Shown piece after piece: positions 55,549 through 56,519 of a DNA stretch of 56,519 nucleotides. Source of the DNA: Escherichia coli (GTDB lineage Bacteria > Pseudomonadota > Gammaproteobacteria > Enterobacterales > Enterobacteriaceae); assembly GCF_003334815.1 (NCBI RefSeq), contig NZ_QOWO01000027.1, one strand, 5' to 3'. Below the pieces are notes generated by a model. The model did not search any database, was not told where the DNA came from, and saw nothing but the letters and a program-made list of their open reading frames with translations. Numbering within the stretch: the first letter of the stretch is position 1; each line of letters begins with the position of its first letter. Position numbers and translations under genes: made by a program.

Positions 55549-55929
55549 TCAAAGGCTCCAGGTATTTAACCCTTTTACCTCTTTCTCATAGAACCATTTG
55601 TTCGTGTTAACAGCAACATAGGCTGCTACGGCAATTCCCAGAATGTTAACGCCAATTAGTGCACCAACAAATAGAGATAGAATACCAAGTAATAGAACTA
55701 TAATTGCTTTTTTCCATAACCCCAGGACAAATAAATATATCCAGGAACAGAAGAAAGCAATGAAATTCATTTGAATAGTTAAGCGTTGTCTTACTTTTAA
55801 TGCTTTAAATGCTGCTTTATATTCTGGTGTTGCCCCCCAGAATCCAGGAAAACCATGTTGATCATAAAAATTAAATCGGTATTTCCATTTTTCACTTAAT
55901 GAACCATCGTTCATATATTCCTTACTCAT
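55549..55929 (-). CDS. yigF: DUF2628-family small inner-membrane protein YigF
   Basis: Track ORF is 140 aa; start placed at MSKEYMNDGSLSEKWKYRFNFYD to give 126 aa. Two hydrophobic helices; markedly AT-rich coding sequence. Confidence 0.8.
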   Translation of the reverse strand: MSKEYMNDGSLSEKWKYRFNFYDQHGFPGFWGATPEYKAAFKALKVRQRLTIQMNFIAFFCSWIYLFVLGLWKKAIIVLLLGILSLFVGALIGVNILGIAVAAYVAVNTNKWFYEKEVKGLNTWSL

Positions 55930-55942
55930 AAATACTCCATAA

Positions 55943-56323
55943 CTATTGTTTTGATGAATCAGTAGGTGCAAGCATTAGCATACTGAAAGTGGAAAAATAA
56001 CAAATCAAAAAAATCATCGAACCATTGCCTGAACAGGCAAAATCTTCGGCTATCATTGTGATGATAGAGATGATATATACTGCTAATGTACCAAAAACAT
56101 AAGTTTTTATATAGATGAAACCACTATCACGGAGTCGCTGGCAATTCATGTTGATGACGAGATAATGGAGTACGATGGTAGAGACTATAACAAGAAAGCC
56201 TGCTTCTCCATCGTTAAAAAAGATAATAAGAAAGGCAAAAATGAAATTTATTAAAATAAATGAAAATATATAACGACGTCTGGAAATCTTACCGTTAGAT
56301 GTTGGGATAAATATACGTAACAT
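55943..56323 (-). CDS. yigG: Small multi-pass inner-membrane protein YigG
   Basis: Track ORF is 146 aa (55943..56383); start tentatively placed at the internal [18 protein letters not shown]. Several hydrophobic helices; AT-rich. The start codon is uncertain. Confidence 0.7.
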
Positions 56324-56519
56324 AAATTTTACATCCTTGTATGAGTCTCCGGTCAGCATGGCAATATGCCCACTCTCATGCAAGAGTCGGCATATTTTTT
56401 CAGAATATATTTATTTTTTATTTGGACGTTCTACGCTGCGTACTGATGAATCCCCTAATGATTTTGGTAAAAATCATTAAGTTAAGGTGGATACACATCT
56501 TGTCATATGATCAAATGGT

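Follow-up and report, generated by a model that had tools for sequence, protein, structure and literature searches.

Two small genes of Escherichia coli, yigF and yigG, lie at the right end of a 56,519-nucleotide stretch of DNA (contig NZ_QOWO01000027.1 of assembly GCF_003334815.1; this whole stretch is called the window) in the gap between the core genes corA and rarD. The gene order at this end, uvrD-yigE-corA-yigF-yigG, is that of strain K-12, and RefSeq E. coli genomes annotate both open reading frames (ORFs) under these names. The islet proper comprises 911 nt, from the corA stop (55506) to the rarD stop (56418), that is, 55507-56417. We describe it here as an AT-rich two-gene cassette in a polymorphic chromosomal slot, one whose two products probably act together in the inner membrane.

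The islet is the lowest-GC stretch of the 56.5 kb. Its GC fraction is 0.34 over 55507-56417 versus 0.52 window-wide, and over 55549-56383 it is 0.344 versus a window mean of 0.524, which corresponds to z = -5.7 against 835-nt sliding windows outside the islet (mean 0.527, sd 0.032). The lowest-GC 835-nt window is the islet itself, and the runner-up stands at 0.412. At third codon positions the GC content (GC3) of yigF is 0.28 and that of yigG 0.32, as compared with 0.63 for corA, 0.62 for rarD, 0.52 for yigE and 0.69 for uvrD; across Escherichia and Salmonella the pair has GC3 values of 0.28-0.34 versus 0.58-0.66 in corA and rarD on either side. All codon positions of the cassette, synonymous sites included, are AT-rich. 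An initial annotation, made by eye, had described the last kilobase of the window as far more AT-rich than its flanks and had proposed the GC and codon comparison just given. The contrast is real, and the extent given holds for 55507-56417; the last 102 bases are the rarD 3' end and the end of an IS10 insertion sequence (IS), two features that the initial annotation had missed, and do not belong to the islet.

The layout of the two genes is operon-like, as judged from the spacing and ribosome-binding sites read from the DNA. A GGAG lies 5 nt 5' of the yigF ATG within the intergenic spacer, and an AAGGA lies 10 nt 5' of the yigG ATG; yigG has alternative in-frame starts at 56359 (ATG) and 56383 (TTG). 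In the hairpin between corA and yigF, 6 GC pairs contribute to a stem of 10-11 bp, and each strand has a T-rich tail. Upstream of yigG, positions 56334-56442 are 97% identical to EcN-type genomes that retain an upstream remnant. An Rfam search found no known RNA family in the islet, the sole real match being the IS10 RNA-OUT.

Table 1. Features of the corA-rarD interval and its borders (window coordinates).
Feature	Position	Strand	Basis or remark
corA, Mg/Co transporter, left core flank	54556-55506	+	haplotype homology stops at corA stop codon
Terminator-like GC-rich hairpin between convergent corA and yigF stops	55518-55542	both	
yigF, 126 aa, DUF2628 family	55549-55929	-	ORF list, Pfam match
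yigG-yigF spacer, 13 nt, with yigF Shine-Dalgarno	55930-55942	-	read from sequence
yigG, 126 aa, four predicted transmembrane helices	55943-56323	-	ORF list, NCBIfam match
Intragenic promoter fragment 'yigG 1.2', published as H-NS-repressed	56023-56172	-	PMC7229825 primers mapped onto window
AT-rich yigG upstream region (promoter region)	56324-56417	-	persists in EcN-type genomes lacking most of cassette
rarD 3' end, last seven codons ...TQRRTSK plus stop, cut by IS10	56418-56442	-	translation
IS10 terminal 77 nt (IS4 family, ISVsa5-like), outside islet	56443-56519	+	

Both proteins are hydrophobic, with grand average of hydropathy (GRAVY) values of 0.36 for YigF and 0.90 for YigG. YigF matches the Pfam family DUF2628 (PF10947) with an E value of 5.2e-10, residues 17-117 aligning to positions 9-91 of the 93-position model, and the precomputed PF10947 assignment is present on most YigF homologues. 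The initial description of two small hydrophobic membrane proteins, with YigF of DUF2628 type, therefore stands. The topology prediction that it had suggested was based on hydropathy, charge distribution and AlphaFold2 models (predicted local distance difference test scores of 77 for YigG and 86.7 for YigF) and gives four transmembrane (TM) helices in YigG and a TM hairpin in YigF. Both termini of YigG are predicted to be inside, which would place the conserved N-x-N-C/A-x-R-L-R-D-S-G loop (R-x-R-D-x-G) in the cytoplasm and the E..C.G.G loop in the periplasm. YigF begins with a basic region of about 50 residues that contains KW..RF.FF, followed by an interfacial LGLWKK motif, and a conserved tail, N..W/Y.Y.KE.KG, follows the TM hairpin. 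These conserved segments at the two ends are both predicted to lie in the cytoplasm, and the TM hairpin between them is hypervariable. Two of the motifs, LGLWKK and KW..RF.FF, are shared with DUF2628 homologues of Pseudomonas and Pantoea, from which the enterobacterial YigF branch differs in its obligate upstream YigG, its fixed corA-rarD site and its strong AT bias.

YigG scores 255.6 bits (cut-off 217, E 1e-76) against the NCBIfam YigG equivalog model NF008474 / PRK11371. It has the same size as proteins of DUF805 (PF05656), the YhaH/YhaI family, is likewise predicted to span the membrane with four helices and has a loop, R-x-R-D-x-G, similar to the DUF805 signature. In contrast to these likenesses, K-12 YigG gives no significant match to DUF805, the alignment being weak (E 0.023-0.038). 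Nine of 15 YigG-like sequences score E <= 0.1 against this family and one scores E <= 0.001. In an AlphaFold Database (AFDB) search with YigG, DUF805 proteins were enriched in the non-significant tail, at E > 0.7, and the YigG profile search of 1.84 billion proteins retrieved no canonical DUF805 protein. YigG, which evolves fast, may be a remote DUF805-like protein.

YigF and YigG are not diverged paralogues of one another, as BLASTP gave no alignment and the hhalign probability was 0.2%. Foldseek against the PDB gave no match for YigF and matches for YigG only at E > 6, and PDB sequence-profile searches gave nothing meaningful for either protein. PADLOC assigned no family to either protein and PHROGs likewise none, on which grounds a defence or phage origin was rejected. 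Nor did Pfam or NCBIfam give a match to any family of toxins or immunity proteins for either protein.

Presence of the cassette, scored as a match to at least 80% of it, was determined in 5426 complete E. coli genomes. It is present in 2964, whereas 994 retain a fragment only (typically 50-52 nt of the 5' part of yigG, at about 94% identity) and 1468 have no match. The carriers hold two alleles, the K-12 type and a second that is about 77% identical in DNA and is found in sequence type 131 (ST131) and other strains; 565 records fall within the 60-80% identity band. The interval between corA and rarD has other occupants as well. Genomes without the yigFG cassette have a DUF3289/YPO3983 plus DUF943 gene pair beside corA, either by itself or together with a third cassette that is distantly YigG-like. 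In all, this gene pair is present in 2634 E. coli genomes, and since 2964 and 2634 sum to more than 5426, at least 172 genomes must hold both pairs. EcN-type genomes have the DUF3289-DUF943 pair followed by a yigG remnant, and O157/O104-type genomes have the DUF3289-DUF943 pair, then a duplicated 137-nt corA 3' fragment (corresponding to window positions 55370-55506 in O157 and O104), and then two further ORFs. This O157-type stretch, a YigG-like ORF pair, is matched at >=80% coverage in 1430 genomes. Its 128-aa ORF shows distant homology to YigG (29% identity, E 1e-6; DUF805 E 0.3). The yigG-yigF pair is one of at least four alternative contents of the slot in E. coli, all of which lack mobility genes and have GC fractions of 0.30-0.36 versus 0.51-0.55 for corA and rarD. 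The initial annotation had proposed looking for presence or absence across Escherichia genomes; the distribution is patchy, with an intact cassette in only the 2964 genomes given above. Literature searches on the corA-rarD slot and type VI secretion systems (T6SS) returned no paper that describes the slot polymorphism, only a false positive.

DUF3289-DUF943 encodes a colicin-M-like T6SS toxin and its immunity protein, validated in vitro (Geller et al. 2024, PMC11148199). Like yigG-yigF, it consists of two AT-rich genes (GC 0.32-0.35) in the corA-rarD slot that are read in the same direction. The two pairs differ in that DUF3289-DUF943 has no sequence or architectural likeness to YigG/YigF: the DUF3289 toxin is soluble and exerts its action in the periplasm, whereas YigG and YigF are small integral membrane proteins, neither of which is known or predicted to be toxic.

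In the O157:H7 F3113 locus (L002) the 128-aa YigG-like ORF occupies 5843-6229 (-), where RefSeq has no annotation. The adjoining 104-aa membrane ORF at L002 6430-6744 (+) is annotated as hypothetical and matched no family.

The yigG-yigF pair diverges far faster than its flanks. YigF of K-12 is 70% identical to that of ST131-type E. coli, 84% to that of Salmonella Senftenberg and 83% to that of Superficieibacter, as compared with 100%, 97-98% and 94% for CorA. ST131-type E. coli and E. albertii share 99% identity in both YigF and CorA, whereas Kosakonia genomes among themselves range over 57-64% in YigF versus 98-100% in CorA. Between K-12 and S22EC the synonymous divergence (dS) is 1.25 for yigF versus 0.11 for corA and 0.17 for rarD, and the CorA and RarD proteins of the two strains are identical. 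In the small sample compared, the relationships among the cassette alleles are incongruent with those of the flanking core genes, and the alleles are far older than the chromosome around them. YigG diverges faster than YigF and out of step with it: the YigF/YigG identities to K-12 are 70%/77% for S22EC and 84%/58% for Salmonella. The disagreement between the two proteins points to mosaic histories. The ratio of nonsynonymous to synonymous divergence (dN/dS) of yigF is 0.05-0.15, a value that denotes purifying selection, and together with the invariant motifs it marks yigF as a real gene.

When one genome per species was scanned, the pair turned up in Escherichia species, Superficieibacter, Atlantibacter and Kosakonia alone, each time between rarD and corA; other searches added Salmonella carriers. 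By AFDB name only, YigG is also present in Intestinirhabdus, Pseudescherichia, Phytobacter and Mangrovibacter. With 25 representatives returned by the profile search, YigG forms a tiny family. All traced distant full-length members lie directly 5' of a DUF2628 gene, with a gap of 4 nt or an overlap of 4-8 nt, and one such distant pair is found in another neighbourhood, after LacI and enolase-superfamily genes. The order yigG then yigF is tightly linked across at least five genera. The profile's weakest hit (P0177) comes from a plasmid-like region with hha and hns genes close by and probably represents another DUF805 relative. Pseudomonas, Pantoea and Budviciaceae commonly encode more distant YigF-like proteins of the DUF2628 family (35-46% identity); searches around the solitary Pseudomonas and Pantoea genes found no conserved neighbours beyond overlapping spurious ORFs.

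As to how the cassette moves, there is no integrase, transposase or tRNA target between corA and rarD, and the repeats flanking the islet are only short and weak. When the window was compared by BLAST with the O157, EcN and O104 loci, haplotype homology ended exactly at the corA stop, 55506. Just past the corA stop the identity between the two E. coli yigFG alleles is 0.98; it then drops, to 0.56 at the TM hairpin of YigF, before rising again close to the rarD stop. The gene order found in Enterobacter sp. E76 and Atlantibacter subterranea is rarD-yigG-yigF-corA'-rarD'-DUF3289-DUF943-corA, with the 3' fragments of corA and rarD placed back-to-back (L008 6429-6910 in E76, L016 ~4431-4907 in A. 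subterranea). We read this tandem as two slot units, each bounded by copies of the flank ends, an arrangement that has the appearance of a recombination scar. From these duplicated corA and rarD end fragments we infer that the cassette is exchanged by homologous recombination in the ends of corA and rarD.

A search for the Atlantibacter-type corA'-rarD' junction in E. coli was uninformative because its matches were merely corA and rarD joined. In Escherichia whittamii the order is rarD-yigG-yigF-orphan DUF943-corA; the full-length DUF943 gene (L013 4487-4984) lies directly 3' of yigF, has no DUF3289 toxin gene beside it and looks like an orphan immunity gene.

Carriage on plasmids or phages was considered and rejected. 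Two inspected records (H121 and H126) are chromosome pieces with the order recQ-pldA-yigI-rarD-yigG-yigF-corA-uvrD, two other plasmid hits are chromosome-sized records, and two phage records are fragments of 1.6-3.5 kb. Fifty-eight of 60 plasmid hits are non-mobilizable, and the Pantoea plasmid hits are distant DUF2628 genes on megaplasmids. NZ_OY843411.1, NZ_LN868946.1, NZ_CP134663.1 and OR851002.1 are probably mislabelled chromosome pieces, and such records would inflate counts of 'plasmid-borne' yigFG. No vehicle for the cassette was found among the inspected plasmid and phage records. The cassette is an old tenant of one chromosomal slot in several genera, not a recent insertion of a mobile element. 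It shows the atypical composition, the patchy presence and the incongruence with its flanks expected of a horizontally acquired islet and lacks a mobility apparatus of its own. These three properties support the horizontal acquisition that the initial annotation had put forward. That annotation had also named two findings that would speak against acquisition, a composition like that of the flanks and universal syntenic conservation, and neither was observed, as GC is low and intact copies are confined to 2964 of 5426 genomes.

The foreign, H-NS-silenced status of the pair had already been reported in the literature. Shavkunov, Ozoline and co-workers illustrated yigF-yigG as a promoter island (Figure 1 and a Table 1 entry in PMC3661553), bound by H-NS in all chromatin immunoprecipitation (ChIP) studies considered and called foreign by two predictors. 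The Freddolino lab reported a small silenced extended protein occupancy domain (EPOD) over yigF, yigG and rarD in K-12 (PMC8282354), and the Grainger lab studied in vitro an H-NS-repressed promoter within yigG (PMC7229825). The mapped promoter fragment points the same way as the genes, 94-243 nt 5' of the yigF start, so that this promoter could transcribe yigF. The AT-richness measured here fits these reports; those papers treat transcription and chromatin and do not deal with slot polymorphism, alternative cassettes or gene pairing. A consensus scan found 2 promoter-like sites versus 5.0 +/- 2.3 expected from dinucleotide-preserving shuffles. Since such sites are not enriched, the 'island' is, under a strict definition, a consequence of composition. 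Phenotypes have been reported for yigG in Salmonella, where the gene is chlorine-responsive and its deletion lowers attachment to surfaces and produce (PMC3579871), and where a yigG deletion was among candidate hypermotile mutants, with a swimming ratio of 1.36 (PMC4219756); yigG is reported to be absent from serovar Enteritidis (PMC3579871). In E. coli the isopropyl-β-D-thiogalactoside (IPTG)-induced YigG clone of the ASKA collection was recovered viable in a screen (PMC10299036).

Taken together, these data make it likely that yigG-yigF is an accessory two-gene operon under H-NS silencing that is exchanged through recombination in its flanks and encodes predicted inner-membrane proteins acting together. 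Its slot is the gap where the 3' ends of two core genes, corA and rarD, converge. Recombination in these gene ends would swap the cassette between lineages and even genera, and occasionally a circularised fragment may integrate by a single crossover and leave duplicated corA' and rarD' ends. According to the literature, the K-12 cassette DNA is coated by H-NS in an EPOD and poorly transcribed, with spurious promoters in its AT tracts. The constant order of the genes and their frequent translational coupling, even in another neighbourhood, suggest that YigG and YigF act together; they would form a small inner-membrane complex with its specificity in the fast-changing membrane helices. Our best guess is that this complex would serve an optional envelope or membrane function, expressed only once H-NS silencing is relieved.

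Several observations weigh against this reading. The Pseudomonas, Pantoea and Budviciaceae DUF2628 genes are solitary and have no YigG-like partner, so YigF is not strictly dependent on YigG. Pseudogenes are common (yigG is frameshifted in S22EC, and many database entries are truncated), and several E. coli genomes have an IS1 inside the cassette; the AT-rich cassette is a recurrent target for inactivation. The dN/dS of yigG, 0.14-0.17, was calculated on saturated dS and is unreliable. GC3 of the pair is 0.28-0.36 in Escherichia, Salmonella and Atlantibacter and 0.51-0.59 in Kosakonia, and because the Kosakonia copies are only mildly AT-shifted, the extreme AT bias belongs to one branch and does not characterise the family as a whole. 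Occupation of the same slot in several genera could be explained by vertical descent with repeated loss. Finally, fold and profile searches found no functional analogue. The initial annotation was right in stating that nothing in the sequence assigns a function.

The alternative that survives best, which we nevertheless consider unlikely, is a role of YigG-YigF in interbacterial antagonism, either as an orphan immunity module or as a toxin-immunity pair complete in itself. Membrane-acting toxins (T6SS effectors or pore formers of the colicin type) would be neutralised through helix-helix recognition within the membrane, which would explain the hypervariable TM segments. Immunity proteins to pore-forming colicins are small inner-membrane proteins with 3-4 TM helices, which counts for this alternative, and they resemble YigG-YigF in being encoded by AT-rich accessory genes and in having their specificity in membrane helices. 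They differ in that YigG and YigF have no sequence, profile or fold match to them and no linked colicin gene, and are encoded on the chromosome, not on plasmids. The alleles are extremely divergent among close relatives, with a peak of divergence in the YigF TM hairpin. Further support comes from the slot itself, which also holds the colicin-M-like DUF3289-DUF943 toxin-immunity pair (PMC11148199), in tandem with yigG-yigF in Atlantibacter and Enterobacter sp. E76, and from the orphan DUF943 directly after yigF in E. whittamii. The DUF3289-DUF943 pair beside yigG-yigF is, however, a separate unit with flank fragments of its own, and no toxin-like gene adjoins yigG-yigF in any locus examined, so that the arrangement typical of T6SS effectors, a toxin gene beside its cognate immunity gene, is not seen. 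The lack of PADLOC, Pfam and NCBIfam defence, toxin or immunity matches, the solitary YigF-like genes without conserved neighbours and the viable induced YigG clone (PMC10299036), which argues against YigG as a potent toxin, also speak against it, and the gap between the convergent genes may be just a permissive insertion site. It is equally doubtful that cassettes for interbacterial competition have a dedicated hot spot in the corA-rarD gap, with YigG-YigF as a two-component inner-membrane immunity or toxin-immunity module. If they had, flank recombination would swap the yigG-yigF alleles, the O157-type YigG-like pair and DUF3289-DUF943, and antagonistic selection on the specificity of the membrane helices would maintain their diversity.

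It is quite improbable that the cassette is functionless, decaying foreign DNA kept harmless by H-NS, with its ORFs as leftovers. Such a fate would be in keeping with the silencing of the K-12 cassette under an EPOD, with the 45% of E. coli genomes that have no intact copy, with the frameshifts, IS1 insertions and many truncated proteins, and with the 994 genomes in which the remnant of about 52 nt alone is kept. Functionless DNA is disfavoured by the yigF dN/dS of 0.05-0.15 at saturated synonymous sites, by the retention of invariant motifs, gene order and coupling over at least five genera and a second genomic context, and by the measurable though weak attachment phenotypes of the Salmonella yigG deletion (PMC3579871).

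Least probable of all is vertical descent of ancestral enterobacterial genes that look foreign through hydrophobicity and fast evolution and have been lost repeatedly: the rarD-corA position is shared by Escherichia, Salmonella, Superficieibacter, Atlantibacter and Kosakonia, there is no integrase, tRNA or flanking direct repeat, and between genera identity drops roughly with distance, but amino-acid composition does not explain GC3 values of 0.28-0.36, yigF dS within E. coli is about 10 times that of the flanks, K-12 YigF is nearer to those of Salmonella and Superficieibacter than to the other E. coli allele (which equals the E. albertii allele), and the differing relationships of YigF and YigG (70%/77% in S22EC, 84%/58% in Salmonella) point to mosaic exchange.

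The feature is an ordinary, known one, and the interest added here is modest. It consists of a map of a small slot with mutually replaceable AT-rich cassettes, one of them a T6SS-type toxin-immunity pair, and of the recognition of yigG and yigF as a co-inherited, fast-diverging pair. Two orphan K-12 genes thereby gain a testable hypothesis, joint action in the membrane with specificity in the variable helices, and the corA-rarD slot offers a clean natural system in which to study how flank recombination exchanges cassettes.

The IS10 at the right end of the window inserted into rarD as a strain-specific event separate from the islet. Positions 56443-56519 match IS10/ISVsa5 ends at 100% in many records, and RNA-OUT gives a partial Rfam match at 56488-56519(-) (35.2 bits, E 2e-4) that is clipped by the window end. 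The insertion interrupts rarD four codons ahead of its stop. Its 9-bp target site is 56434-56442, CGCTGCGTA. Strain ET12567 has an IS at the identical rarD site with CGCTGCGTA duplicated on both sides of it; in the window the duplication is invisible because the window ends inside the IS. The two IS10 ends show four differences (56466, 56467, 56469 and 56489), which could result from independent hits on a Tn10 hot spot, from different IS10 copies or from gene conversion. The exact IS10 junction of the window is absent from all complete E. coli genomes in the collection. The other end of the window, positions 1-160, carries tRNA-Asp and tRNA-Trp genes just 3' of an rRNA operon, and with one end there and the other inside IS10, the window looks like an assembly contig broken at repeats, derived from a K-12 descendant with IS10.

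Some further observations concern the rest of the window and its neighbourhood. After the islet, GC is lowest at 38951-39785 (0.41) and 12876-13710 (0.43). Judged by offset from the ET12567 annotation, the former comprises the 5' end of aslA together with the long spacer between aslA and hemY, and the latter the ppiC-rep interval with a frameshifted PemK/MazF-family toxin pseudogene. Judged from the same annotation, the window includes the K-12 ilvG frameshift region. The stretch at about 54348-54404 (+), 5' of corA, corresponds to the position where related genomes annotate the 18-codon ysgD/CorL leader ORF. A gene of the SAM hydrolase/SAM-dependent halogenase family is found between uvrD and yigE in O157, EcN and S22EC (L002 1038-1940, L003 1038-1940 and L004 1-440 in the comparison loci). 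It is absent from the window, ET12567 and O104:H4 and marks a second presence/absence slot a few kb from the first.

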